Positions 5,855 through 43,855 of a stretch of DNA of 64,000 nucleotides are shown one piece after another. Position 1 is the stretch's first letter. Each line of letters starts with the position of its first letter. Both the position numbers and the translations under genes were made by a program. The notes below the pieces were generated by a model, which was not told where the DNA came from, searched no databases, and was given only the letters and a program-made list of their open reading frames with translations. Source of the DNA: Chromatiales bacterium (GTDB taxonomy: Bacteria; Pseudomonadota; Gammaproteobacteria; RBG-16-57-12); NCBI GenBank assembly GCA_026989455.1, contig JALSJH010000059.1:784-64783 (forward strand), given 5' to 3'.

Positions 5855-6610
5855 ATGAAACTGCCCGCTACACTGCCCGCCCGATTACGGGCGAGTGCCA
5901 TTCACTTTGCGCTCAGCTTGGCTGTTTTTCTGGTACTGCTCAGTTTGATTGTCTACATCTGGTATCCCGGGGCGCTGTTTTGGGTTGACGGTGGGGTTAG
6001 CGGAGTGAAAATCCTGATCGCAGTTGACTTGGTTTTGGGGCCGCTGTTAACCCTGATTATTTACAATCCCACCAAAACCCGACGTCATATTGTGATGGAC
6101 TTCATGCTGATAGCAGCCATCCAGGTGGCTGCTTTGGCTTGGGGTGTCAACACCATCTATGATCAAAAGCCACTGGCAGTGGTGTTTGATGGCAGTGCCT
6201 TTCAGATAGTGGATAAGGATTATCTGGAGAAACAGGCGATTGATATCACCGCTTTGAACAGCGAGGGCGCTCCGCTGCCGCTGATCTACTACTCCCGAAA
6301 ACCTCAAACCACAGAAGAGAGTGTAGGGGCGATCACGCAGCTGTTTATTAACTCAATTCCCGAATGGGCTGTGGTGACACTTTTTGATCCGCTTGATCTT
6401 CACCTGGCGGCGCTGAAAGAAGCGTCTGATAAGACAAAACGCCGACATCGTGAAAATGAGTTAGTCATGGCACGCTACCGCTCACTTTTATCAGAAAAAC
6501 AGTTAACTGAAGCGGATTCACTGTTATTGCCACTCAGTGGTCGTTTCGGTGACGGCTTGATGGTATTAGATCCATCGGGTGCGCTGCTGGGCAGTTTTCG
6601 GGTTGAGTGA
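5855..6610 (+). CDS. Hypothetical membrane protein (two N-terminal TM helices)
   Basis: Hydrophobic N-terminus with no recognisable catalytic motifs. Sits where tRNA-Asp follows dnaQ in enterics. Confidence 0.45.
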   Translation: MKLPATLPARLRASAIHFALSLAVFLVLLSLIVYIWYPGALFWVDGGVSGVKILIAVDLVLGPLLTLIIYNPTKTRRHIVMDFMLIAAIQVAALAWGVNTIYDQKPLAVVFDGSAFQIVDKDYLEKQAIDITALNSEGAPLPLIYYSRKPQTTEESVGAITQLFINSIPEWAVVTLFDPLDLHLAALKEASDKTKRRHRENELVMARYRSLLSEKQLTEADSLLLPLSGRFGDGLMVLDPSGALLGSFRVE

Positions 6611-6745
6611 GCTGTGGTTAATCAGAGCTTCCTTAATAAAATGCCAAAAATGAAAAACAGGATGCGTTAAGCGGCGTATCCTGCTACTGTTTGTGCCTCA
6701 TTTTTTAGCTGAACTTATCAAAAAACCAGAGAATAAAGCATCCTA

Positions 6746-7813
6746 ATGGATAATCGCGTCGAAAATTTGCACATCATCTCCGAAGTTCCTCTGATTCGCC
6801 CAGATCAGGTGAAAGCGATGTATCCGCTTACTCCGGAGAGCATTGATACGGTCATGCAAGGGCAACAGCAGATTCGCAACATTCTGGATGGAAAAGATAA
6901 ACGTCTGTTTGTGGTGGTTGGCCCCTGTTCCATCCACGATGTTGAGCTGGCACTTGACTACGCCAAGCGGCTTAAAACATTGGCAGATGAGCTAAAAGAG
7001 AGCCTCTGTATTGTGATGCGGGTCTATTTTGAAAAACCTCGCACCAGCATCGGCTGGCAGGGGTTGATTAACGATCCTGATATGGATGGCAGTTGTGATA
7101 TCGCCAAAGGGTTGTTGATGTCGCGAAAGCTGCTATTAAAAATTGCCGAGCTGGGGCTGCCTGCTGCCGGTGAGGCGCTGGATTTGATTACACCACAATA
7201 TGTTCAGGATCTCTTCTCCTGGACAGCCATCGGCGCGCGCACCACAGAGTCACAAACCCACCGTAAAATGGCCAGTGGCTTCTCAGCACCTGTTGGGTTT
7301 AAAAATGGTACCAATGGTGATTATGACGTCGCCATCAACGCCATCATCTGTGCGGCTCATAAAAATGATTTTGTCAGCATTGACCCTTTGGGTCAGGTGG
7401 CGGTTATTCGTACCAAAGGCAACCCCTACACGCACATGGTGTTGCGTGGCGGAAGCGACGGCCCCAACTACGATGAAAAGCATATCTCAGCCTGTGAAAA
7501 GCAGCTGGCCCATGGCGGGTTGCCACTTAATATTATGGTGGATTGCAGCCATGCCAATGCGCAGAAAAACCACCTGAAGCAGCGGGCAGTATTGGATGAT
7601 ATTGCCCAGCAGATTATTGATGGTAACCAATCCATCAAAGGGGTGATGGTTGAAAGTAATATCAAGGCGGGTAATCAGCCCATTCCTGCAGATCATGGGC
7701 AGTTGGCGTATGGTGTATCGGTTACCGACAAGTGTATTGATTGGCAGATGACTGAAGATGCACTGCGAGAGCTGGCACAAAAAACCGCAGTAGCACTTAA
7801 GAGTCGAGGTTAA
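6746..7813 (+). CDS. 3-deoxy-7-phosphoheptulonate (DAHP) synthase, class I
   Basis: 355 aa with class-I AroF/G/H motifs (KRLFVVVGPCSIHD, GARTTESQ, HMVLRGG). The isozyme cannot be assigned. Confidence 0.85.
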   Translation: MDNRVENLHIISEVPLIRPDQVKAMYPLTPESIDTVMQGQQQIRNILDGKDKRLFVVVGPCSIHDVELALDYAKRLKTLADELKESLCIVMRVYFEKPRTSIGWQGLINDPDMDGSCDIAKGLLMSRKLLLKIAELGLPAAGEALDLITPQYVQDLFSWTAIGARTTESQTHRKMASGFSAPVGFKNGTNGDYDVAINAIICAAHKNDFVSIDPLGQVAVIRTKGNPYTHMVLRGGSDGPNYDEKHISACEKQLAHGGLPLNIMVDCSHANAQKNHLKQRAVLDDIAQQIIDGNQSIKGVMVESNIKAGNQPIPADHGQLAYGVSVTDKCIDWQMTEDALRELAQKTAVALKSRG

Positions 7814-7854
7814 ACCCCCTCAATCCTGCCTCCGTCTGATTCGATGAGCTAAAA

Positions 7855-8772
7855 TCACTTGGTATGACAGGTGAGACACAAGGCGCTTTCGGCGTTTGAG
7901 ATCCGTAAAAAACTTGGAATGAACTCACTGGTTGGCCCTGCCGATGGCACACCATGGGGGTCATGACAAGAGGCACACTCCACCTCATAGCCCTCCCCCG
8001 TATTGTACATGCGAATTTCGTTGGTATCACTCCGGCCATTTCCATTGATATCAAAAAAGCTTAATTTCCCAGCCTGAATGCCCGTAGGTATCCTAAAGTC
8101 GACGCCCGCGCCAAGGGTGGTGGGATATTCCACGCCGATGGGGTGGTCATTACGTAGATCAGTACTGATGAAAAAGGCTGAAAAATCGGCCATTCCCAGC
8201 GAAGGAAACATCGGTGGTGTGCCATGGCAGCGGTTGCAGTCTGAGGCGGTGCTACCAAACATAACCGCGTGGTTGCCACCGCTAGGGCCTGGCCCACTCC
8301 AGCTATCGAGAAAGGCCATATCAACACTGCTCTCCTGAGCGGGGTTATAACCACCCGAGCCGGGCATGTTGATCACCGAGTCTATGGCGATGGTGCCATC
8401 GTGACAAGAGAGGCAGGTTAACGAATTAGCCCCAGGGTCGGTGATAGTCTGGCCTAGGGTGGTGGGCATGTCGTAGAGTGTATAGGGATCCGACGGGCGG
8501 GTTCTGTTCCAAAGTGGTATCGCCCCCATCTGGCCGCTGGCTCCATGGGGGGTGTGGCAGTAGACACATACGGCATCATAGTCGTTGCGATAGGCGTTCA
8601 TGAACCCTTCCATGTCTGAGTAGCGCTGGGTCAGGTTATGCCCGGTGTTGGCTACCGTGGTATGGTTGGGTGCCTTGGAGGCCGCACGCCAGCCATCAGC
8701 AGAGGCTACTGAAATCAATAGCAGAGTGCTGATTGTAACGAGCAGTACCAAAGAGCTACGGGTGAATCGCAT
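7855..8772 (-). CDS. Secreted pentaheme c-type cytochrome
   Basis: Signal peptide followed by five CxxCH motifs (CVYCH, CLSCH, CNRCH, CASCH, CLTCH). Paralogous to the ORF at 32782-33633. Monocistronic and divergent from the histidine kinase gene. Confidence 0.8.
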   Translation of the reverse strand: MRFTRSSLVLLVTISTLLLISVASADGWRAASKAPNHTTVANTGHNLTQRYSDMEGFMNAYRNDYDAVCVYCHTPHGASGQMGAIPLWNRTRPSDPYTLYDMPTTLGQTITDPGANSLTCLSCHDGTIAIDSVINMPGSGGYNPAQESSVDMAFLDSWSGPGPSGGNHAVMFGSTASDCNRCHGTPPMFPSLGMADFSAFFISTDLRNDHPIGVEYPTTLGAGVDFRIPTGIQAGKLSFFDINGNGRSDTNEIRMYNTGEGYEVECASCHDPHGVPSAGPTSEFIPSFLRISNAESALCLTCHTK

Positions 8773-11540: not shown

Positions 11541-11600
11541 ATATTGGGTGGGGGCTGTTTAGGTGATAATGAGCACACTAACATATCAGCATTAAAAAGG

Positions 11601-14453
11601 ATGTTACACATGTATAACCCGCGAAAAGGTACCTTGTTTTACCCGTTTTTAATCGCTGCGCTACTGCTCTCCATAACCCTGCTTAGTGGCTGTGGTGGGG
11701 GTGAAGAGAGTGTTGCTGAGGGTGCGCCGGAGACGTTGCAGGAGGAGGCCATCATCGCAACATCCAAGATTTCTGGTTATGTTCTGGTAGCGAGTCTCCC
11801 GGTCAATGACACAACAGTGCAATACACATACCAGGCTTCTTTTGATAATGGTGACTTTCCAGCAAGCCAGGTGACGGCTCGCATTACCGAAACTCCGGAT
11901 GGCATCATCCTCATTGATGGTACCTTGAGCTTCAGTAATGTGGAAGCCAGTGGTCGCCAAGTGAGTAACAAGCACTTTGTTATTCAACGTGATCTTAGTA
12001 AGCCATTTCATGTTAATGACCTGATTTGGGCTATTGAGGCTCAGCGTGAAGCCAGCCTAAGTTTTGATGCTGAACAGTATGAGCTGCGGATGGGGGTTGG
12101 CGAGACCCGCGATGTCAGTTACCAGCTATTGGCGTTCAATCCGGATACGGTGGCTACTGGGCTGAGTTTGCGGGAAGAGGTTGATGCGGCTGTGCAGCTG
12201 AGCAGCCGTAATAGCGGCGTAATTAGTTTGACCCCAGGTAGTAGTCGTTTTCGGCTTAGCCAGAGCATCACCTCCCTGACTACCGGTCGTTTTGAATTGA
12301 CCCTTACCGCTACTTTGCCAAGTACTGGCTTGGAGCAGAGCGTGCGCATCAATATTATTGTTGAAGCCGATTTGGATGGCGATGGTGTGCCTGATGAGAT
12401 TGATCTGTGTGCCTTTAGTATCTTGGGTGACTCCGTCGATAACAGTGGTTGTGCGGCAACCGATGTGGTTGATAGCAGCGCCTTTCGTGACTTGCAGATA
12501 GGTGAGACCACCTTTCGTGTGCAAGAGAATAATCTCGAAGAGCAATACTCAAACGGCATACTCACCGGGTTGCAGGCCAGTGGCTCACTCTTACTACTGA
12601 CCCCTCTCGGTGATATTGTATTGAAAGAGGCTGAGCTTGTTTTTGAGTATGGTACATCCGGGATGGGTGGTATCGAGCGTCTACGGGGTACTGCACAAGT
12701 CCCCTTTCCTGATGTGGGTATGCTGGCTGATGCAGAGGTTGGTACACCGGTGATAGCGGATGTGGGCCTCGATTATGGCCGTAACTTGTCTGATCTTGAA
12801 GCACCGTTGGTAGATGATCGCCAATATCTGTTTTTCAACTTTAGTGCTGGCTTTGAGGCGAGTGTTGGCCCTATCAGTTTCGAAGCGCCGGGTGGCAAGG
12901 CGATTACCTTTGTTCTCGATCCGCTGGACCCCTTCTTTTTCTTCACCGGCGACCTGCCAGGGCTGTCTGATATCGGAGTAGAAGATCTTGGTATTGCCAT
13001 GTCACTGCGGGGGCTGATTCCCTTCACACCTGATACGACTTGGGGTATCGGTGATGATATCGGTAATTTTGATGCCAACCTCTATCTGCAAGGTGTCATT
13101 CCCTTTGCTCGTTGGCCGTTAAATCTTGATGGTTCGCTGGTGGTTGATGTGGATGCCAATGACGATGGGCAGACGCTGTTTAACAGCTTTACGCCAGATG
13201 TAGAGTATGGGGGCAATGGTACGCTCAATGTGGGTGTCGATTTCCTTAAGTTTTTCGGTTTTAGTTTCGAATTGGGCAGTGCCAGTCTGGGTATTAAAAT
13301 GACCAATGGTGAGCAGAATGCCTATTTTAGCGGCATGCTTGATCCCGACACCGATTTTTTGCCGCAAGAGTTGGTGCCAATTCGCCCCAGTGCCACGGTT
13401 AACATGGCGGGCCTTATCAGTGACGATATCGCCAAATCATTTTTACGTGGTGAGGGTGAGTTTAATCTCGATGCTTCAACACTAGGGCGCTTGGTGGGCA
13501 TCAATCTTAATAACCTCAGTACGACAAGCGCAACATTCAGCGCTGACCGTGATGGTATAAACCTGACGGGCTATACACGCACCAGCATCTACCCTGATGT
13601 GGGTTTTGATGGGGATGCTCGGCTCAATGCCAATTTTACGGGGTCATTGACTAGCTGGAGTATCGATCTCAGCGGTGAGATGTCAATTGCCAATACCCCA
13701 ATCAGTGAAGGTCGGCTAGAGGTCAGTACAGCGGGCATGTTGGTGAGTGGTGAGTTTGTCACACCGTTGACCCGCATCGGGATGAACGGGCAGATTGATG
13801 CCAGTGGCATTGAAATGCGCGGTAATACAGGCATTACTATTCCGATCAGCGTGGTGGAGAGCGTGGTTGAGTGGGTGGTAGATGCCGCTATCTGCGGTAC
13901 TGAACGGGTGACTGATGCCGCACGGTGCGGCTTGGATTCAGTGACCAGCAGTGCAATTTGTGGCTACCAGGCCGTGACCAGCGCGGCTCAATGTGGTACC
14001 CGCACCGTGACCAGTGCGGTTCACTGTGGTACGAGCACCATTACCAGTGCCGCCAGATGTGGAACCAATTGGGTGACCGACATCGCAACGTGTGGCTGGA
14101 GTGTCATTACTGGGCAAGGGGGTTGCAGTGTTGCTAGGTCTTGCAGTGTTGCCAATAGCTGTAGTATCGCTAACACCTGTGATATTGCGAATACCTGCTC
14201 GATACCCGCAAGCTGTGATATTCCCCGTGGTTGTAACAACAGCACCAATGTCACGCTTCCAAAGGGTGAATTCCGTGGTGACATCGAACTGTTATTGGGT
14301 AATCAGGGTATCGGTGGTGAAGTGAGTGGTGACTACTGCTTTGCGGGTGACTGCACCACCCTTACTGGGGGACGAGTCAAGGCCGGTAGTAGTGGTCTGG
14401 AGGCATGTATAACCATCCCTGCGGGTATTGGTGAGGTGTGCGCGCCTATCTAA
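11601..14453 (+). CDS. Large lipoprotein with C-terminal Cys-Gly tandem repeat module
   Basis: Likely start at 11601 (MLHMYNPRKG, AAGGA RBS); the track ORF starts at 11544. Lipobox LLSGC. One TSP3-like Ca loop (DLDGDGVPDEID). The C-terminus has 7 x 11-aa repeats (AxCGxxxVTSA) followed by 6 x 6-aa repeats ([ST]C[SD][IV][AP][NR]). No recognisable enzymatic motif. Confidence 0.7.
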   Translation: MLHMYNPRKGTLFYPFLIAALLLSITLLSGCGGGEESVAEGAPETLQEEAIIATSKISGYVLVASLPVNDTTVQYTYQASFDNGDFPASQVTARITETPDGIILIDGTLSFSNVEASGRQVSNKHFVIQRDLSKPFHVNDLIWAIEAQREASLSFDAEQYELRMGVGETRDVSYQLLAFNPDTVATGLSLREEVDAAVQLSSRNSGVISLTPGSSRFRLSQSITSLTTGRFELTLTATLPSTGLEQSVRINIIVEADLDGDGVPDEIDLCAFSILGDSVDNSGCAATDVVDSSAFRDLQIGETTFRVQENNLEEQYSNGILTGLQASGSLLLLTPLGDIVLKEAELVFEYGTSGMGGIERLRGTAQVPFPDVGMLADAEVGTPVIADVGLDYGRNLSDLEAPLVDDRQYLFFNFSAGFEASVGPISFEAPGGKAITFVLDPLDPFFFFTGDLPGLSDIGVEDLGIAMSLRGLIPFTPDTTWGIGDDIGNFDANLYLQGVIPFARWPLNLDGSLVVDVDANDDGQTLFNSFTPDVEYGGNGTLNVGVDFLKFFGFSFELGSASLGIKMTNGEQNAYFSGMLDPDTDFLPQELVPIRPSATVNMAGLISDDIAKSFLRGEGEFNLDASTLGRLVGINLNNLSTTSATFSADRDGINLTGYTRTSIYPDVGFDGDARLNANFTGSLTSWSIDLSGEMSIANTPISEGRLEVSTAGMLVSGEFVTPLTRIGMNGQIDASGIEMRGNTGITIPISVVESVVEWVVDAAICGTERVTDAARCGLDSVTSSAICGYQAVTSAAQCGTRTVTSAVHCGTSTITSAARCGTNWVTDIATCGWSVITGQGGCSVARSCSVANSCSIANTCDIANTCSIPASCDIPRGCNNSTNVTLPKGEFRGDIELLLGNQGIGGEVSGDYCFAGDCTTLTGGRVKAGSSGLEACITIPAGIGEVCAPI
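13880..14240 (+). repeat. Coding tandem repeats (33-bp then 18-bp units) encoding Cys-containing peptide repeats
   Basis: Periodic protein sequence ICGTERVTDAA / RCGLDSVTSSA / ICGYQAVTSAA / QCGTRTVTSAV / HCGTSTITSAA / RCGTNWVTDIA / TCGWSVITGQG, then SCSVAN / SCSIAN / TCDIAN / TCSIPA / SCDIPR. Confidence 0.7.
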
Positions 14454-23423: not shown

Positions 23424-23588
23424 ATGTTTGGCTGGATTATGCCGTTACAATCAAGTAGCTTGTTAAAGAATTGATGGAAGCTTGCAATTATTAAAGGAAT
23501 TGTACATATTCCAGTGTATAAAGTCATGGGCTCTGAAATGTTCGAAGCGGCCAGATGTATGGCAAAAGTAAAGAGTGGGAGTAGATAG

Positions 23589-26426
23589 ATGCGCGATTGG
23601 ATTAATTTATTACTGGTTATTACCTTTTCATTGGTATTGGCCGCCTGTGGTGGCGATGGTTTGGGAACCTCCGGAACGACAGCCCAAGATCCGCCACCAG
23701 TGGCTGACCCAGATGCACCTGTTCCCACCTCAGATGCAACCAATATAACGCTATTGGTCAGTAGTCCGCAAATGCCATCAGACGGCTCAAATACAGTTAC
23801 CTTGACGGCGGTGGCACGAGATAACAGCAACAGGTATGTAGAAAACACTACCATTGAGTTCTCGGCATCATCCGGTGGTATTTTAACCGGTGAGCGCACT
23901 GCAACTAACTCTTCAGGGCGAGTCTCTGCAACGCTGGATATTGGTGGCGACCCCGCTAACAGAACAATTGTGGTTACTGCGGTTGATAGTGTAACCGGCC
24001 AGAGTGCTAATCGGTCAGTTGAAGTGAGGGACACGCGGTTTATCTTTTCCGGTCCTCAGCGTATTGAGGTGGGTGAGAGTGCTGAGTTAGTGGTGCAGTT
24101 AGTGGATGCTGGTGGTAACCCAATCACCTTTCAAAATATCACCTTGACCTCCTCTCAGGGTAATACCATACAAGCACCTACTGGGCTGGTTACTGATAGT
24201 ACCGGTCGTATTACAGTGACAGTACTTGGCGGGGTCGCGGGTTCTGATTTCATTACCGCCAGCGCTTTTGGTCTGAATGCTGATAACAGTACCTTTTCAC
24301 TGGATATTATCACTGCGGATGCCATTTCATTTTACTTCGACTTGCCGGTCGATAATGCTGAGATTGCATTGGGCACGAACGCTGCTTTTCGTGTCTGCTT
24401 GACGGATGGCGCAGCCGCTGTAGCGGCGGGAACCACCATTCAAATTTCATCTACCCGCGGAACCTTTGGTTCAAGTGGTGGAGCTGTTGCCTCTTACAGC
24501 TCGGATGGATTGGCAACTTGTTGGGATGATACGCTGTCCAACCAAGGAGCGGGCTTCGCTCAGGTATTGGCGACTACCTCCAGTGCTACAGTCGCTTATG
24601 ATGAGCTGAGTGCCTCAAAATTACTTGAGTTTATTTCAACCACTGTCAGCTTAGTTAATATACAAGCTGCGAAATCCATTTTGGAGCGCGGAGAGCAGAC
24701 TCAAATTGTCGCTACATTGCGTGATAGTCACTATAATTTGGTGAAAAATAGAACGGTCAGTTTTTCCATTGATGCCGATGCCAGTAATGGCAATCTTAAC
24801 CCCCCCACAGCGACCACCAACAGTAATGGGGAGGCAACAGTTGTCTATACTGCGGGGATGGCTAGCTCTGGGCTGTATGATGTTATTATCAAAGCAGAAG
24901 ATTATGAGTCGGGGCTTTTTTCAACCACAGAGCTTACGGTTCAAAATAGAGCATTGCATGTAGCGCTGGGTCGCGGTAATACTATGGCTAATTATGATGA
25001 TGGGTCCTTAACCTCCTACGCGCTACCTTATAGTGCCATCGTAACTGATTCTGCTGGGCAACCTGTTGCTAATCAGCCGATAAGCCTCTCCATCTGGTCG
25101 CATCGATATTTCAAAGGTAGTTACTACCCCACATACTCTCCAACCGGCGGTTTTATTCTCTATAGCAATGCACCAGTTGATGAGTATGAGTGGGATGTGC
25201 CCGGTGACGGTGTAATTAGTTGGGGGCGCGTGCTCAGTTGTGGTAATGAAGATACTGATTTTAACGGCATCGCAGACTTTAATGAGGACCTCAATAGAAA
25301 TAGAACTTTTGACCGGACAAATGAAGATCTGAATGGTAATGGTGTTATCGATTTAAGTGAGGATACCAATGCAAATGGTATTTTGGATATTCTTGAGGAT
25401 GCGAATCGAAATGGTATTTTAGATCCGGGTGAGGATCTTAATGGTAATGGTAAATTGGATGCCACTGAAGATATCAACCTCAATGGGGTGTTGGATGGTA
25501 GTGAAGATGTCAATGAAAATGGTATTTTGGATGTGCTCGAAGATACCAACCTCAATGGTCGATTGGATCCAGGCGAGGATTTGAATTTCAATGGTGTGCT
25601 AGATGCTACGGAGGATCTGGACGGCGATGGTTTCTTGACCTCGGAAGATATTAATCGCAACGGTATTTTGGACCCGGGTGAAGATACCAATGGTGATGGT
25701 GTGTTGACCACAGAAGATCTTAACGGCAACGGGGTGCTGGATGTCAGTGAAGATCTTAACCTCAACGGTGTGCTGGATTTTGGTGAAGACCTGAACGGTA
25801 ACGGTATCATTGATGTGAGTGAAGACCGTAATTTGAATGGTTTTCTGGATGTGCTTGAAGATGCCAATAGAAATGGCGTGTTAGACCCGGGTGAAGACCT
25901 CAATGGTAATGGTCTTTTAGATCTTAGCGAAGATATTAATGGTAATGGTGTGCTGGATGTTGATGAAGACATTAATGGTGATGGCGTATTCTATGCCTAC
26001 GAGGATAGTAACCAAAATGGTATTTTAGACCCGGGTGAAGATCTGAATGGTGACGGTATTCTCAACCTTCCAGTAGATGTAGATGTGAATGGTAATGGCC
26101 GTCTTGACCCAGGCAATGTTGCGACAATTTCGGTAGATGACACTATTGGTGCCTTCTCAATCAACACCACCACTGATGAAAATGGTGTGGCTATCTTTGC
26201 AGTGATTTATGCTGAAAGTTTTGCAGGTTGGTTGGAGGTGTCACTTGAAGCGAGAGTGATCGTTGATGGTACTGAAAACTCGGACCGGACTCGCTTTATT
26301 TTACCGGCACTGGCCGATGACCTTAATCAGGAGGATACTCCCCCGGCAGGCTATGTTAGCCCCTTTGGTCGTGGTTATGATGTGCGTACTGGCCTGATTC
26401 AGGGTTGTACGGTGGACGAGATTTAG
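23589..26426 (+). CDS. Large lipoprotein with bacterial Ig-like domains and about 25 tandem EF-hand/TSP3-like calcium-binding loops
   Basis: Lipobox LVLAACGG. Several roughly 90-aa Ig-like (Big-type) repeats (TIVVTAVDSVTGQSANRSVEV and similar). From about residue 545 to 850, back-to-back 11-13 aa loops match D-x-N-x-N-G-x-L-D-x-x-E-D. Confidence 0.75.
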   Translation: MRDWINLLLVITFSLVLAACGGDGLGTSGTTAQDPPPVADPDAPVPTSDATNITLLVSSPQMPSDGSNTVTLTAVARDNSNRYVENTTIEFSASSGGILTGERTATNSSGRVSATLDIGGDPANRTIVVTAVDSVTGQSANRSVEVRDTRFIFSGPQRIEVGESAELVVQLVDAGGNPITFQNITLTSSQGNTIQAPTGLVTDSTGRITVTVLGGVAGSDFITASAFGLNADNSTFSLDIITADAISFYFDLPVDNAEIALGTNAAFRVCLTDGAAAVAAGTTIQISSTRGTFGSSGGAVASYSSDGLATCWDDTLSNQGAGFAQVLATTSSATVAYDELSASKLLEFISTTVSLVNIQAAKSILERGEQTQIVATLRDSHYNLVKNRTVSFSIDADASNGNLNPPTATTNSNGEATVVYTAGMASSGLYDVIIKAEDYESGLFSTTELTVQNRALHVALGRGNTMANYDDGSLTSYALPYSAIVTDSAGQPVANQPISLSIWSHRYFKGSYYPTYSPTGGFILYSNAPVDEYEWDVPGDGVISWGRVLSCGNEDTDFNGIADFNEDLNRNRTFDRTNEDLNGNGVIDLSEDTNANGILDILEDANRNGILDPGEDLNGNGKLDATEDINLNGVLDGSEDVNENGILDVLEDTNLNGRLDPGEDLNFNGVLDATEDLDGDGFLTSEDINRNGILDPGEDTNGDGVLTTEDLNGNGVLDVSEDLNLNGVLDFGEDLNGNGIIDVSEDRNLNGFLDVLEDANRNGVLDPGEDLNGNGLLDLSEDINGNGVLDVDEDINGDGVFYAYEDSNQNGILDPGEDLNGDGILNLPVDVDVNGNGRLDPGNVATISVDDTIGAFSINTTTDENGVAIFAVIYAESFAGWLEVSLEARVIVDGTENSDRTRFILPALADDLNQEDTPPAGYVSPFGRGYDVRTGLIQGCTVDEI
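25224..26139 (+). repeat. Coding tandem repeat (roughly 36-39 bp units) encoding the Ca-binding loop array
   Basis: Visible periodicity of GATxTxAATGGxAATGGTGTGCTGGAT-like units. The antisense ORF 25160-25972 is an artefact of this repeat. Confidence 0.7.
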
Positions 26427-26453: not shown

Positions 26454-26483
26454 AAAAAGGGTGGCATTGCCACCCTTTTTTAA
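26454..26483 (+). terminator. Rho-independent terminator after the repeat lipoprotein gene
   Basis: Hairpin AAAGGGTGGC-ATTG-CCACCCTTT followed by a T-run. Confidence 0.55.
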
Positions 26484-31675: not shown

Positions 31676-32806
31676 CTACTGCTCTTTCTCTTTCATCTCT
31701 TTGCGGATTTTATCTCTATATTTCACGCCTAAATAACCATCTTGTGCTGTGATTGAGGCTGGCCTGAAGATGTCAATCTTTCGAAAAAACTGATCGGCAT
31801 AATAGATGCGACCATCTTCATCAACTTCTAACCCGGAAGGGAGCATGAAAGTACCTGGTCTACCATCGTTGCTGCGGCTGCCAATGAACAGAAGTAGCTG
31901 ACCCTCGGGGTTGAATATCTGGAAGTTGCCAAATGCCGAGTCACCAACATAGACGTTGTTATCTTTGTCTGTCGCAATTCCTTTTGGCCGTGAAAAGTTG
32001 CCACTGTAGCGTCCGGCAACACCGAATGTAGATATGAAGTCACCCTCTGCGGTGAAAGACTGGACACGGAAGTTGCCGCCATCCACAACGTAAACGGTTC
32101 CATCGGGTGCGGTGCTGACCTGAATGGGTAGATTGAAATCACCCGGTTTTTTACCACGCTCTCCGACAACTCTTTTGATTTCAAATGTCTCAGCATCGAT
32201 GACATACATGTGATGACGGGTGCTGCTAATGCCCCCGCTATCGATCACATAGAGGGTTTTTCCATCAGGGCTGACGGCGACACCCGATGGGCGGTCAAAG
32301 AGGGTTCGTCCTTCCAGCTTGCGCTGGTATTCACCCTCTTCATTGTATACTTTTATACTTTTATCTGTGATGTCAGCTACATATAGATTGCCATCCGCGT
32401 CGATGTCGATTCCTAGCGGTTTTAGCAGCATGCCAGGCCCCTCTTTTACACCGATAAAAGAGGTCTTCCCTCTGGGTACATCGAATAAAATGACGGCACG
32501 CTGAACGGTGTCAGTTACATATATTTTCCCTTTTCTGACTGCGATACCAAAAGGTTTTGCCAAGCCTGTTGTGCTTTCAGTGGAACCGGTTGCCAGAAAC
32601 TTGAATTTCATTGCGGCCGTTACATCTGCAATGCTGGCACCGCTGTAGATGGTTCGTTCATATATGAATCTAGGGTCTTCTGGAGGGTATTGCGGTGGTT
32701 TGAATTCGGGGCGGTTCTCGCTTGAGCAGCCCGTGAGGGCGGCCATGACGAACAGCAGTGAGAGCGCAAGGGTTGTTGTTATTATTTTGTGTGGCAAGTG
32801 TTGCAT
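31676..32806 (-). CDS. NHL-repeat beta-propeller lipoprotein
   Basis: Lipobox LTGC. Six NHL-like repeats (GIAVRKGKIYVTD, GIDIDADGNLYVAD, GVAVSPDGKTLYVID and others). Its start overlaps the upstream cytochrome gene by about 25 bp, indicating an operon. Confidence 0.75.
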   Translation of the reverse strand: MQHLPHKIITTTLALSLLFVMAALTGCSSENRPEFKPPQYPPEDPRFIYERTIYSGASIADVTAAMKFKFLATGSTESTTGLAKPFGIAVRKGKIYVTDTVQRAVILFDVPRGKTSFIGVKEGPGMLLKPLGIDIDADGNLYVADITDKSIKVYNEEGEYQRKLEGRTLFDRPSGVAVSPDGKTLYVIDSGGISSTRHHMYVIDAETFEIKRVVGERGKKPGDFNLPIQVSTAPDGTVYVVDGGNFRVQSFTAEGDFISTFGVAGRYSGNFSRPKGIATDKDNNVYVGDSAFGNFQIFNPEGQLLLFIGSRSNDGRPGTFMLPSGLEVDEDGRIYYADQFFRKIDIFRPASITAQDGYLGVKYRDKIRKEMKEKEQ

Positions 32807-33633
32807 AAAATTTCTCTTCTCACCGTTAGTAGAAGTTCGTTGGTTGAGTTGTGTACATCATGGCAAGATGCACACTCTATATTTCCATCGTAAAGGCGAA
32901 CACCATTGCTGAAACCTGCTGGATCCAATGGGAGCTTAAAGTCGCGATCTCGCCAGTTGAACCCGCCATACTGAATGGATATCGGGTGTTCATCTGAGAG
33001 GTCGGTGCCCAATACTTTCGGGGAAATATCGTGTGCGGCCTCTCCATCATGACATGTGCCGCAGCTGTCTAAATCTTTCGCGCTGTTCATGCGCATGTGC
33101 ATCGCAGCATCATCTTCACTCCTAAAGCTGCCAGGTGTGAAGAGCACCATATCCATTGCCATGGTGCCATCGTGGCATGAGAGGCAGAGCAAACTAATGC
33201 TGGACGGGGTGCGCAGCGGCGCATCGAGGCTGGGTGATGTGTAGGGTGTGTATTGATCGGCTGCGGGTGCAAAACGGTTCCAGCCTGCAATGCCCCCCAA
33301 TAGCTCACTGTCGGTATCGGCCTCTTCTGGCGGCAAGTGGCAGTAGACGCAGGGGTTTCCGTAGTCAGAAAAAGCAACCCCTGCCATTGCATTAACCCCG
33401 GCACGCTCATTGAGGCCAGTGAAGTCATGCTTTGAACCCATGATCGGATCATTCAGGCCAATGACCGGGTCAGCTATAATACCGACTGTCGCCAAAGCCT
33501 GTGATAGCCCGAAGGCTGATGCAATGACAGCAGAGAACAGTAGCAAATGCTTTCTACCCAAGGGCATATGAAATTTTAGAGAGTCTTTTAAGTTCATTTT
33601 GTTCCATTTTTTTTTGGGCATAATTAGCCGCAA
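32782..33633 (-). CDS. Secreted pentaheme c-type cytochrome (paralog of 7855-8772)
   Basis: Five CxxCH motifs (CVYCH, CLSCH, CGTCH, CASCH, CNTCH) in the same order, with the same flanking residues (LxCLSCHDGT, DHPI, ECASCHDxH, C-terminal CxTCHTK) as the other copy. The signal peptide suggests the real start may be the internal Met at about 33567. Confidence 0.8.
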   Translation of the reverse strand: MRLIMPKKKWNKMNLKDSLKFHMPLGRKHLLLFSAVIASAFGLSQALATVGIIADPVIGLNDPIMGSKHDFTGLNERAGVNAMAGVAFSDYGNPCVYCHLPPEEADTDSELLGGIAGWNRFAPAADQYTPYTSPSLDAPLRTPSSISLLCLSCHDGTMAMDMVLFTPGSFRSEDDAAMHMRMNSAKDLDSCGTCHDGEAAHDISPKVLGTDLSDEHPISIQYGGFNWRDRDFKLPLDPAGFSNGVRLYDGNIECASCHDVHNSTNELLLTVRREILCNTCHTK

Positions 33634-43065: not shown

Positions 43066-43155
43066 GGAGAGCTGGCCGAGTGGCTGAAGGCGCACCCCTG
43101 CTAAGGGTGTATAGGGGTAACTCTATCGAGGGTTCGAATCCCTCGCTCTCCGCCA
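43066..43155 (+). tRNA. tRNA-Ser (anticodon GCU)
   Basis: Cloverleaf starting GGAGAGCTGGCCGAGTGG with a long variable arm, anticodon loop CTGCTAA, TpsiC GGTTCGAATCC, and 3' CCA encoded. Confidence 0.85.
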
Positions 43156-43255
43156 TTATTTATTGATTTTATTGGAAAAACTCCTCCGGTAAATAGAAGA
43201 GATAATGAGTTGACATGTGTTAGTTAAATTAGCATAATGCGCACCTCAGAACAAT

Positions 43256-43332
43256 GCGCTCGTAGCTCAGCTGGATAGAGTACCTGGCTACGAACCAGGG
43301 GGTCGCAGGTTCGAATCCTGCCGAGCGCACCA
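43256..43332 (+). tRNA. tRNA-Arg (anticodon ACG)
   Basis: GCGCTCGTAGCTCAGCTGGATAGAGTA ... anticodon loop CTACGAA ... GGTTCGAATCC ... CGAGCGCACCA. An upstream promoter TTGACA-N17-CATAAT is visible. Confidence 0.85.
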
Positions 43333-43340
43333 TATAGAAT

Positions 43341-43369
43341 AAAAAAACCAGCAAATTGCTGGTTTTTTT
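43341..43369 (+). terminator. Rho-independent terminator after tRNA-Arg
   Basis: AAAAAAACCAGCAAATTGCTGGTTTTTTT is a perfect hairpin flanked by A and T runs, so it may act bidirectionally. Confidence 0.6.
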
Positions 43370-43768
43370 ATGCCTGTGTATCTCTCCTGCTCTCACCAAT
43401 AGCGCTTTCTTAGGGGATCACTGACTAAGTCTGGATGAGTTTAGGCTGAGAGGGGGTTGCTCTCATTTGTTCCGAAATGCGCAGTAATGGTCGTTCTATT
43501 GGGGTGGTTTTCAGTAAAAATGAGGGTGGCTTCAGCTAGCATAAGATATTCATGACTTGATCAGAGCTTCCTTGGTGAAGCGTCTTCAGGCTTTTGATTG
43601 TCCATGCTTGCATGGTCTGTAATCATTGGGTGTTGGTGTAAGCCGTTGTTTCACGCTCCACAAGTGGAGTGGTCATGGCCGGCGTTAGGCAGTGTGGTGA
43701 GAGTCAAAGTGTGAAAGCTGTTAAGGCGTAGTGCGGGGTTTGTGATTGTCTAGTGTGGTTTGAAAATA

Positions 43769-43855
43769 TGGTGCCTGGGAGAGGACTTGAACCTCCACGG
43801 GGTTGCCCCCACTAGCACCTGAAGCTAGCGTGTCTACCAATTTCACCACCCAGGC
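43769..43855 (-). tRNA. tRNA-Leu (anticodon CAG)
   Basis: The reverse complement reads GCCTGGGTGGTGAAATTGGTAGACACGCTAGCTTCAGGTGCTAGTGGGGGCAACCCCGTGGAGGTTCAAGTCCTCTCCCAGGCACCA. It has a long variable arm and anticodon loop TTCAGGT. Confidence 0.8.

Follow-up and report, generated by a model that had tools for sequence, protein, structure and literature searches.

What structure is formed, and what role is served, when two dozen calcium-binding-type loops follow one another directly in a single envelope protein? The question is raised by a gene for a predicted lipoprotein within a 64-kb stretch of DNA (the whole of which was analysed and is here called the window). A sequence-only reading of this locus had proposed a calcium-dependent extended rod. 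The present analysis indicates that the array interrupts one beta-sandwich domain, that it is strongly conserved among orthologues, and that its probable precursor is a two-loop site found in relatives which are frequently encoded beside pilus genes.

Gene and genomic context

The open reading frame (23589..26426, + strand) starts with ATG and encodes 945 residues with no internal stop codons. As the sequence-only reading stated, its neighbours are nth, divergent upstream, and priA, downstream. Two non-coding features delimit the gene:

23424..23588, + strand: divergent intergenic region of 165 bp between nth (- strand) and the lipoprotein gene (+ strand), presumed to hold the promoter and ribosome-binding site
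26459..26481, + strand: intrinsic terminator-like hairpin, GGGTGGC-ATT-GCCACCC followed by TTTTTT

A GGGAG can be read about 9 nt 5' of the ATG; a promoter scan of 23424..23588 gave no convincing site on the + strand, and the promoter is placed there by presumption. The hairpin was read from the sequence and is absent from the list of the automatic scan; on its account the lipoprotein gene is likely to form a single transcription unit.

The order argG-DUF1841-nth followed by the lipoprotein gene is kept in all orthologous contigs checked, with priA next where the contig reaches that far (the window and contig L001). Synonymous divergence (dS) across the orthologues that share this order is about 1 or saturated, and orthologues are as numerous as close relatives of AlaRS, findings which speak against the earlier description of the gene as a small accessory insertion. 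A horizontal-transfer island was likewise rejected, given the conserved synteny and clade-wide presence, despite a GC3 that is mildly low. Pfam annotation of 20 further open reading frames of the window returned housekeeping genes only, and an Rfam scan of the window found three tRNAs only, far from the lipoprotein gene. Two multihaem cytochromes are also encoded within the window, with nothing tying them to the lipoprotein gene. An antisense open reading frame at 25160..25972 (270 residues, rich in Ser, Pro and Leu) was dismissed as a mirror image of the repeat.

Protein architecture

Profile searches and structure prediction with AlphaFold2 (AF2), the full-length run using a 42-sequence alignment, divide the protein into the following parts, all encoded on the + strand:

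23589..23648, + strand: signal peptide with lipobox, residues 1-20 (LVLAAC, Cys20 predicted to be lipidated)
23649..23738, + strand: Pro/Asp/Thr-rich tether, residues 21-50
23739..24944, + strand: stalk of four Ig-like domains of the Big_1 / invasin-D3 type, residues 51-452
24945..25244, + strand: N-terminal half of a beta-sandwich head, residues 453-552
25245..26117, + strand: array of 24 contiguous EF-hand-type loops, residues 553-843, consensus D-L-N-G-N-G-V-L-D-x-x-E, nested in the head domain
26118..26426, + strand: C-terminal half of the head, residues 844-945, with the stop codon

The description of the protein as a lipoprotein with Big-type Ig domains was borne out. The N-terminus reads MRDWINLLLVITFSLVLAAC followed by GGDG, with a lipobox (LAAC) ending at Cys20; the lipobox is kept in the family consensus, where an ACGG motif is present across a 42-member alignment. 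By the established E. coli rule for lipoprotein sorting, which depends on the residue at +2, the Gly at this position suggests sorting to the outer membrane, the most likely location of the protein. The tether that follows is predicted with low confidence (pLDDT <50 at residues 17-44) and differs in length among orthologues. For the stalk, Pfam matches on the whole protein comprise Big_1 over four stretches (E 1.5e-30) and Invasin_D3 (E 1.7e-11), AF2 predicts four confident beta-sandwich domains (pLDDT ~80-95), and the best Foldseek match is invasin (1CWV, E 1.8e-12), with FdeC also matching.

The loop array

Counting about 25 loops of 11-13 residues over some 300 residues, the sequence-only reading was accurate: there are 24 loops in 291 residues, starting at residues 555, 567, 580, 592 and so on to 818 and 832. 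The spacing from loop to loop is 12 residues in 19 cases, 11 in two, and 13 and 14 in one each, with no helices between them. The positions expected to bind calcium are nearly invariant. Asp occupies position 1 in all 24 loops and Asn or Asp positions 3 and 5 in all 24, while Asp stands at position 9 in 20 and Glu or Asp at position 12 in 21; Gly at position 6 and Leu, Ile or Phe at position 8 are each found in 23. Positions 1-12 of the PROSITE pattern PS00018 are matched by 14 of the 24 loops, against 0.07-0.13 in shuffled sequence, and the remaining ten fail this strict pattern mainly through Leu or Phe at position 4. The full pattern, which includes a hydrophobic residue at position 13, is matched only at two 11-residue loops; since the units abut directly, position 13 in the array falls on the Asp that opens the following loop. 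Asp, Asn, Gly and Leu predominate in the composition, the net charge is -66 and there is no Cys.

Among Pfam models, EF-hand_5 gave 13.0 bits on the whole protein and 27.8 bits, against a cut-off of 25.9, on the array alone, where the match spans profile positions 9-20 only, that is, the loop. This agrees with the earlier view of an EF-hand-type loop without flanking helices. DUF7151, too, passed its gathering cut-off when the array was scanned by itself. The only curated NCBIfam-type match on the array was CglD (NF033765; E 1.6e-14, 52.8 bits against a cut-off of 400, model positions 146-352). The proposed likeness to thrombospondin type-3 (TSP3) repeats and dockerins fared unevenly: a resemblance to the former is reasonable by way of CglD and cartilage oligomeric matrix protein (COMP), but TSP_3 and TSP3_bac had no match at E<=1 on the whole protein or E<=10 on the array alone, and neither Dockerin_1 nor the haemolysin-type calcium-binding repeat models matched protein or array. 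A sequence search of the PDB with the full protein returned no matches. With the array alone, the top match (9e5c) was discarded as a periodic low-complexity artefact, and weak matches to Z-Ca and FrpC involved single EF-type loops and were not significant. About 1,000 protein clusters contain comparable arrays of loops, for which no dedicated Pfam or curated repeat model and no solved structure were found.

An excursion from a single domain

Both head halves are predicted with confidence (residues 453-552 and 844-940, pLDDT ~85-93; mostly ~85-91 in the N-terminal half and ~86-93 in the C-terminal half) and both align with shorter relatives. The N-terminal half closes with a near-invariant Cys551 followed by N-E-D, and the C-terminal half contains a conserved GN[IV]A strand, a PPxG..SPFG motif and a near-invariant Cys940; the conservation of both Cys residues suggests that they probably form a disulfide. 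The array is modelled quite differently, with pLDDT ~27-42 and no regular secondary structure, and DSSP assigned no helices of note to residues 557-833, a region of low confidence.

The short relatives align on both flanks of the array and, in about 50 of them, carry at the array site a segment with a modal length of 26 residues comprising two loops, the counterpart of the opening loops and the final loop of the array. The head of such a short form is predicted with a mean pLDDT of 93.5 and a pTM of 0.85, the two-loop segment itself reaching 91-95. Taken together, alignments and models place the array as an insertion within a single beta-sandwich domain, not between domains. Its two ends must then meet, given that relatives bridge the same point with only ~26 residues, and an array whose ends are adjacent cannot space domains apart.

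The head has no relative in Pfam, and a search of the PDB with its profile gave nothing better than E 0.037. Foldseek matched it to generic Ig/PapD-like sandwiches only (TM <= 0.38), among them TTHA1873 at an rmsd of ~15 A, and these matches were set aside as uninformative.

Conservation among orthologues

At the DNA level, Tandem Repeats Finder (TRF) detected periods of 36 and 72 bp with matches of only 67-76%. Identity among the 36-nt units averages 56% (83% at most), and the longest stretch repeated exactly measures 17 nt. A higher-order super-repeat was rejected, as unit identity is flat against lag at 0.54-0.59 and the 72-bp period is local. Loop number and register are identical in seven of eight orthologues (70-88% identity), the other (P0003) having ~83 extra residues within the array. 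Loop-specific residues that are not ligands are conserved between orthologues, as is the exact order of the loops, including the two of 11 residues. In two pairwise comparisons the array has a dN/dS of 0.050 and 0.034, and no other part of the protein is as constrained; its amino-acid identities are 0.92 and 0.89, compared with 0.90 and 0.65 in the Big stalk. None of the orthologues is a pseudogene, a result that the sequence-only reading had named as refuting it. The array is thus under purifying selection with a stable copy number. The low unit identity, the shared loop count and the low dN/dS indicate that its expansion was rare and ancient and is not ongoing, contrary to the earlier suggestion of a repeat prone to expansion and contraction.

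Two-loop relatives and the type IV pilus

An unnamed family of Big_1 lipoproteins with a C-terminal two-loop head domain is defined here by a lipobox, a Big_1 stalk and a head of the form C-x-[NDS]-E-D ... loops ... G-N-[IV]-A ... SPFG ... C. The window protein carries these features and is, as judged from its sequence, a member; the ~50 short relatives match 55-69% of it at E 1e-72 to 1e-18. The two-loop relatives are encoded as the sixth gene of pilMNOPQ, between pilQ and aroK, in many Gammaproteobacteria and Betaproteobacteria from the environment. The end of pilQ lies <=400 bp upstream of the relative in 36 of 51 evaluable loci, a proportion not to be taken as unbiased for the family at large, because the genome survey used patterns from a 5-sequence alignment of one subfamily; adjacency was also seen in three individually inspected contigs. 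The carriers include Steroidobacteraceae, Woeseiaceae, Nevskiaceae and other Gammaproteobacteria, along with some Betaproteobacteria. Lentisalinibacter is a cultured carrier of a pilQ-adjacent homologue. Elsewhere, one relative (P0013) is encoded beside fimU-pilVWX-pilY1 and another (P0097) within a pilus/T2SS-like cluster.

The window gene and its orthologues are not located immediately 3' of pilQ, occupying the argG-DUF1841-nth locus instead, and tblastn with PilM/N/O/P/Q found no pil genes in the window or the orthologous contigs. The pilus link is consequently indirect for the window protein. Literature searches yielded nothing specific on a lipoprotein encoded after pilQ or on tandem DxDxDG arrays in Big_1 proteins.

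Expansion at the two-loop site has also taken place in other members, to ~11 loops in P0097, ~16 loops with a 14-residue period in P0099 and ~25 loops in P0080. Sequence comparison within the family shows that the site has been expanded independently at least three times.

Interpretation of the array

These findings are best accommodated by a model, to which a probability of roughly 0.55 is assigned, in which a lipid-anchored envelope protein has had a pilus-linked two-loop site amplified into a 24-loop calcium module that is compact when calcium is bound. The protein consists of a short flexible tether, four invasin-like Ig domains serving as a stalk and a distal beta-sandwich head. In the family at large, the head holds two adjacent EF-hand-type loops between two strands, after the near-invariant Cys. 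Since most relatives are the sixth gene of pilMNOPQ, the ancestral role was probably tied to the outer-membrane (secretin) complex of the pilus. In the lineage of the window, the gene lies elsewhere, between nth and priA, and the two-loop site has been multiplied into an uninterrupted run of 24 loops, mostly of 12 residues. About one calcium ion may be bound per loop, for some 20-24 ions per array. Mostly disordered without calcium, the array would condense with it into a compact lobe or hairpin projecting from the head; a linear rod is not expected because the head domain holds the ends together. The calcium-loaded form could serve a calcium-dependent interaction with a surface or matrix, by analogy with the type-3 wire of thrombospondin and COMP, which packs on a C-terminal beta-sandwich, and with the DxDxDG domain of CglD, which supports calcium-dependent gliding. 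A bolder and unlikely version would make the family a hitherto overlooked part of the type IVa pilus machine, placed in the outer membrane, whose head-domain calcium site senses or responds to external calcium; several lineages, that of the window most extremely, would each have amplified this site independently into a long module that binds many calcium ions cooperatively and works as a calcium-triggered switch or spring at the cell surface.

The sequence-only reading took the array for a calcium-rigidified rod that lengthens an adhesin or S-layer-associated protein and pushes its distal domain outward. Other bacterial adhesins do have rods stiffened by calcium, the loops are indeed EF-type and back to back, and an invasin-like Ig stalk is typical of adhesins. 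The reading is nonetheless unlikely, as the array interrupts one beta-sandwich whose conserved halves co-fold and the 26-residue relatives set its ends side by side; nor did Pfam domains or neighbouring open reading frames of the window reveal anything related to an S-layer. A high-capacity cation sink has a slightly poorer standing. Here the array would have no architectural role and would buffer, store or scavenge calcium or another metal such as a lanthanide, or offer a surface for mineral nucleation, in keeping with its ~24 potential sites, its charge of -66 over 291 residues and a host related to sulfur-oxidising, often halophilic, Gammaproteobacteria. Simple buffering would not, however, require the conserved loop order and loop-specific non-ligand residues, Asn at positions 3 and 5 probably lowers the charge density below that of Asp-rich high-capacity binders, and no genes for transport or mineral-related functions are adjacent.

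It is also improbable, to a greater degree, that the array is an acidic, intrinsically disordered spacer or brush in which the EF-like motif has no specific metal role. The absence of predicted structure and the dominance of four residues in the composition would suit such a spacer, but a strictly kept register of 12 residues in which the ligand positions, Gly6 and the hydrophobic position 8 are near-invariant would not, and so low a dN/dS is unexpected where composition alone matters. The ancestral two-loop form is moreover predicted to be ordered, and low AF2 confidence would be expected of a calcium-dependent fold because AF2 omits ions; the same was reported for CglD. Least credible of all is a contingency locus, in which rapid shifts in the copy number of the 36-bp repeat would vary the cell surface. 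The TRF periodicity, the longer array of P0003 and the several expansions at the same site in the family can be cited for it, yet they are set against the divergence of the units, the identical loop number and register kept by seven of eight orthologues at dS ~1 or more, and an array dN/dS of 0.03-0.05.

The window gene encodes a single, well-conserved protein of the envelope in a clade without cultured members, its function inferred; the family as a whole provides a natural series of 2, ~11, ~16, 24 and ~30 contiguous loops, all at the same position in a small domain that is predicted well. Such a series lends itself to studying the folding of helix-less EF arrays and the cooperativity of their calcium binding. 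The topology also illustrates that a repeat with the linear look of a rod can leave and re-enter one domain, forming a closed excursion from it. The two-loop relatives are a candidate pilus accessory protein open to genetics in cultured carriers, and should the pilus-calcium proposal be true, the array would represent a helix-less EF-loop fold class with neither a solved structure nor a dedicated repeat model.

Relation to known calcium-binding and envelope proteins

In PilY1, a helix-less EF-hand-like calcium site lies in a beta-propeller and its occupancy controls type IV pilus dynamics. The window protein resembles it as an envelope protein with helix-less, EF-hand-like loops; the two have no sequence or domain relationship, the sites in PilY1 are single, and PilY1 is encoded with pilus genes whereas the window gene lies outside a pilus cluster. 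With canonical EF-hands (EF-hand_1/5/6, PS00018) the array shares the 12-residue loop with positions 1, 3, 5, 9 and 12, Gly6 and a hydrophobic position 8, though not the entering and exiting helices or the paired-hand domain. It also differs from dockerins and the RTX beta-roll, with a period of 12 residues and not 9 (GGxGxDxUx).

As regards the scaffold, invasin, intimin and FdeC likewise have a rod of tandem Big_1 / invasin-D3 domains and a distal head. Their anchor is an N-terminal beta-barrel with LysM, in contrast to the predicted lipid-modified Cys here; NCBIfam intimin scores in the relatives are far under the cut-off and the window protein has no barrel domain. Its head is a beta-sandwich with no close solved relative, distinct from the C-type-lectin-like D5 of invasin.

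Myxococcus xanthus CglD, a surface lipoprotein of gliding motility, has a long DxDxDG dodeca-repeat region comparable to that of the window protein. According to a preprint on CglD (10.1101/2023.10.19.562135), HHpred matched its repeat region to COMP, gliding depended on calcium and AF2 left the repeat region "largely unstructured", as in the model of the array here. The match between the two proteins lies well below the CglD cut-off and covers the repeat region only. Pfam detects no VWA/beta-integrin domain and no EGF-like Cys-rich modules in the window protein, whose scaffold is a Big_1 stalk with a novel head, and its relatives are tied to type IV pili and not to the Glt gliding machine.

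With CglD, the closest studied parallel is offered by the type-3 repeats of thrombospondins and COMP, in which contiguous calcium motifs, their structure held by the bound calcium, are associated with a C-terminal beta-sandwich (cited in PMC3123361). This "calcium wire" (PDB 1UX6, 3FBY) and the present array share many 12-residue DxDxDGxxDxxD-type motifs in a row without flanking helices, the association with a C-terminal beta-sandwich and, presumably, a structure held by calcium in place of a hydrophobic core. At positions 3 and 5 the array has Asn where the wire has Asp, and at position 12 it has Glu, an EF-hand pattern which makes one ion per motif more likely than two. The repeats of thrombospondins are disulfide-bonded, whereas the array has no Cys, and the array is nested inside its beta-sandwich where the thrombospondin repeats precede theirs.

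Lipoprotein gene and putative calcium loop array

The lipoprotein gene and two further features of the same DNA are as follows.

23589-26426, plus strand: lipoprotein gene, with an ATG start and an uninterrupted ORF of 945 aa
approximately 26459-26481, plus strand: hairpin and T-run terminator, GGGTGGC-ATT-GCCACCC-TTTTTT, located 3' of the gene and absent from the output of a consensus terminator scan
25160-25972, minus strand: antisense ORF of 270 aa, rich in Ser, Pro and Leu, which mirrors the repeat and is almost certainly not a gene

The protein begins with MRDWINLLLVITFSLVLAAC followed by GGDG, which constitutes a signal peptide and lipobox, and the ACGG motif is present in the consensus of a family alignment of 42 members. 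The Gly at position +2 suggests a putative outer-membrane location. Pfam searches have matched Big_1 over four stretches (E 1.5e-30) as well as Invasin_D3 (E 1.7e-11), with four confident beta-sandwich domains detected at aa 51-452 of the AlphaFold2 (AF2) model. Invasin 1CWV was the top structural match to the whole model (E 1.8e-12), with FdeC also among the matches. An earlier sequence-only reading had described a lipoprotein with Big-type domains and about 25 EF-hand-like loops; the lipobox, the Big_1 matches and the modeled beta-sandwiches bear out the former, and the loop array is confirmed essentially as first written.

The array comprises 24 loops within aa 555-843, spaced by 12 residues in 19 cases, 11 in two, 13 in one and 14 in one, with EF-type residues conserved in a position-specific manner.

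Table. Residue conservation across the 24 loops of the array
Loop position, residue, loops
1, D, 24/24
3, N or D, 24/24
5, N or D, 24/24
6, G, 23/24
8, L, I or F, 23/24
9, D, 20/24
12, E or D, 21/24

Positions 1-12 of PROSITE PS00018 were matched by 14 of the 24 loops, where shuffled sequences lead to an expectation of 0.07-0.13. With its 291 aa, the array carries a net charge of -66 and is free of cysteine. When searched in isolation, it just passed the cut-offs of EF-hand_5 (27.8 bits vs 25.9, covering profile positions 9-20 only) and DUF7151 (29.6 vs 27.2); TSP_3, TSP3_bac and Dockerin_1 were absent even at E<=10. Among the Pfam families initially put forward, EF-hand_5 was recovered on the isolated array, while TSP_3 and Dockerin_1 were not.

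Position of the array within the head domain

A homologue search yielded two groups: seven to eight orthologues matching over the full length, at 70-88% identity and each with a long array, and about fifty shorter proteins of roughly 610-760 aa, whose coverage of the query is limited to about 57%. When read and aligned, these short relatives proved to share with the 945-aa protein the lipobox, the Big_1 stalk and both segments flanking the array. The segment preceding it (aa 453-552) closes with a near-invariant Cys and then N-E-D, and the one following it (aa 844-945) carries G-N-[IV]-A, PPxG..SPFG and a near-invariant Cys. At the array site, the short relatives typically have 26 residues, corresponding to two loops, as in the protein P0036 (CPNEDANRNGVLNPGEDFNNNTRLDPG). 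In the full-length AF2 model both flanking segments are folded confidently (pLDDT about 85-93) and the array is not (pLDDT 27-42). The head domain of a short form (P0037, aa 427-614) was predicted separately with a mean pLDDT of 93.5 and a pTM of 0.85, its two-loop segment being a predicted ordered coil between two strands (pLDDT 91-95). Since the flanks align with relatives that have two loops at this site, and since both flanks fold, the array is nested in the head domain: it is an expanded two-loop site inside one domain, which holds its ends together. A linear inter-domain spacer is therefore impossible, leaving a closed excursion in the form of a lobe or a hairpin.

No relatives of the head domain were detected in Pfam and NCBIfam scans. 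A profile of the domain searched against PDB sequences gave a best match of only E 0.037, and Foldseek returned generic Ig/PapD-like sandwiches only (TM <= 0.38). The head domain, a novel one, is without a curated or solved relative.

Conservation of the array and its locus

The array had been proposed to be a tandem repeat prone to expansion and contraction, a view that is contradicted by its sequence divergence. The 36-nt DNA units share an average identity of 56% (maximum 83%) independent of lag, exact repeats extend to 17 nt at most and TRF reported only 67-76% matches. Loop number and order are identical in 7/8 orthologues, both 11-residue loops included; comparison of repeat number among these orthologues yielded a single difference, in P0003, whose array is longer by about 83 residues. 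No orthologue presented frameshifts, and the possibility of a pseudogene raised at the outset finds no support among them. Nei-Gojobori estimates were obtained from codon alignments pairing the gene with its orthologue in contig L001 and in contig L002. Array amino acid identity was 0.92 and 0.89, respectively, with dN/dS of 0.050 and 0.034, where dS was about 1 vs L001 and saturated or nearly so vs L002. For the Big stalk, identity was 0.90 and 0.65, with a dN/dS of 0.061 vs L001 and none computable vs L002 owing to dS saturation. Because of this array identity and dN/dS relative to the stalk at a dS of about 1 or saturated, the array is the most constrained region of the protein, with loops that are orthologous one by one. 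It is an old, stable feature rather than a contingency repeat.

The order argG-DUF1841-nth followed by the lipoprotein gene is identical in the three orthologous contigs retrieved; priA-argS come next in the window and in L001, and the remaining two contigs stop at or just past the gene. For the AlaRS of the window, seven relatives show 80-85% identity, beyond which identity drops to <=72%; their count mirrors that of the lipoprotein orthologues, and the nearest named taxa by this marker are Thiohalophilus, Thioalkalispiraceae/Thiohalomonadales and Kaarinaea. As synteny is conserved and orthologue number mirrors that of AlaRS relatives, the gene appears to belong to the core genome of a small, uncultured clade of Gammaproteobacteria. 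The small accessory insertion suggested by the sequence-only reading is at odds with this gene order, with the clade-wide presence and with a GC3 (0.41) only mildly lower than that of the neighbors (0.48-0.58).

Additional features have been observed in the window.

7855-8772, 32782-33633 and 31676-32806, all minus strand: two multihaem c-type cytochromes (Paired_CXXCH_1 / Cytochrome_C7) and an NHL/SGL beta-propeller gene; one cytochrome adjoins the beta-propeller protein, a pair also kept downstream in L001
35009-35776, minus strand, and 43066-43855: respectively, the gene of a pentapeptide-repeat protein (Pfam E 1.9e-64) and a cluster of three tRNAs, both unrelated to the array
11544-14453, plus strand: ORF of 969 aa with a lipobox (LLSGC followed by GGGEES), unmatched in Pfam at E<=1e-5; within roughly the last 150 aa, an odd Cys-rich repeat with units of about 12-13 residues (..AICGTERVTDAARCGLDSVTSSAICGYQAVTSAAQCG..) gives way to 6-residue Cys repeats (CSVANSCSIANTCDIANTCSIPASC)

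Distribution of the array and of the lipoprotein family

With only the array as query, a search of 1.84 billion representative proteins gave 1,039 matching clusters at E <= 1e-3, 258 at E <= 1e-10 and 40 at E <= 1e-30. Many matches are proteins of 2,000-7,000 aa and 12-residue spacing is the commonest; among the 149 best matches, the longest unbroken loop chain outside the window clade has 19 loops, compared to 24 in the window array. Arrays of abutting 12-residue D-x-[DN]-x-[DN]-G loops occur in about 1,000 clusters; many of the proteins are giant and begin with a signal-peptide-like segment, for example P0074, P0093 and P0129 (2,900-3,800 aa; among P0062-P0209). Pfam models covered none of the arrays in seven array-bearing proteins scanned, and these contiguous arrays look like a repeat class still without a model.

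Several matches belong to the same lipoprotein family, independently expanded at the same site. P0097, with about 11 loops, is encoded at 858-3260 of contig L080 in an MSHA-like pilus cluster, having a response regulator/GGDEF gene upstream and an MshE-type ATPase, a T2SSF platform protein and pilins downstream. P0099 has about 16 loops (aa 514-754) with a 14-residue period, N-E-D-L-N-G-N-G-V-L-D-T-x-x, which shows that inter-loop linker length can vary among independent expansions, and P0080, with about 25 loops, is encoded between htpG and clpB. In a rough neighbour-joining tree, these three expansions fall on at least three separate branches.

Three short relatives inspected singly are encoded directly after pilQ, in the order pilM-N-O-P-Q-[gene]-aroK-aroB, with one locus continuing into fimU-pilV-pilW-pilX-pilY1. 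When one genome per GTDB species was scanned with sequence patterns, 68 loci were recovered, mostly from Steroidobacteraceae, Woeseiaceae, Nevskiaceae, Lentisalinibacter and other Gammaproteobacteria, as well as some Betaproteobacteria and one Syntrophaceae contig; the patterns derive from one subfamily, making proportions biased and indicative only. With these one-subfamily patterns, pilQ ends less than 400 bp upstream in 36 of the 51 loci with enough upstream sequence, and four further loci of the 51 show the same pil block with fragmented or interrupted matches. Unlinked members occur mainly in Alteromonadaceae and Marinobacter, plus Rheinheimera. The window gene is likewise unlinked, with no pil genes within the 64 kb. 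A Big_1 lipoprotein encoded after pilQ was not described in the literature searched, where the secretin partners named are PilF, TsaP, FimV and Slk proteins, and no NCBIfam model names the family gene. It lies between pilQ and aroK in many genomes of Steroidobacteraceae, Woeseiaceae, Nevskiaceae and Lentisalinibacter, the last including cultured carriers, and in some betaproteobacterial ones (L004, L007, L009-L010 and L011-L072; in L011, for example, pilQ spans 5902-7995 and the lipoprotein gene starts at 8001), and may be a type IV pilus accessory gene not described before. Such a role is plausible for the two-loop relatives and only a lead for the window protein; the structural and pilus questions raised are testable.

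Proposed function and comparison with known calcium repeats

The calcium-binding part of the sequence-only reading holds up as a prediction from loop composition. According to EF-hand and TSP type-3 chemistry, each loop would bind one Ca2+ through positions 1, 3, 5, 7 (backbone), 9 and 12, giving perhaps 20-24 ions per molecule. As it has neither a hydrophobic core nor cysteines, the array is probably disordered without calcium and would condense upon binding, presumably into a lobe or hairpin on the head given that its ends are pinned. The protein most likely functions in an interaction that depends on calcium, at the envelope or the cell surface.

The extended calcium rod first envisaged is contradicted by its nesting within a single head domain that holds both ends. 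A contingency locus would vary in copy number, which is stable, and its units are diverged. Position-specific conservation and very low dN/dS contradict a non-specific acidic spacer. A pure cation sink, for which loop-by-loop orthology would be needless, is improbable.

Among studied systems, the nearest analogues are the COMP/TSP type-3 wire and CglD, whose DxDxDG region was the sole curated model matching the array (E 1.6e-14), at a score far below the family cut-off. This region was matched to COMP by the CglD authors, left largely unstructured by AF2 and tied to calcium-dependent gliding (10.1101/2023.10.19.562135). In the window array, Asn occupies positions 3 and 5 and Glu position 12, an EF-hand pattern, whereas the TSP pattern is all-Asp. 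Helix-less EF/TSP3-type calcium repeats are already known in bacterial surface lipoproteins; what is unusual here is the length of the unbroken array, its nesting inside a domain and its membership of an unnamed, largely pilQ-linked family.
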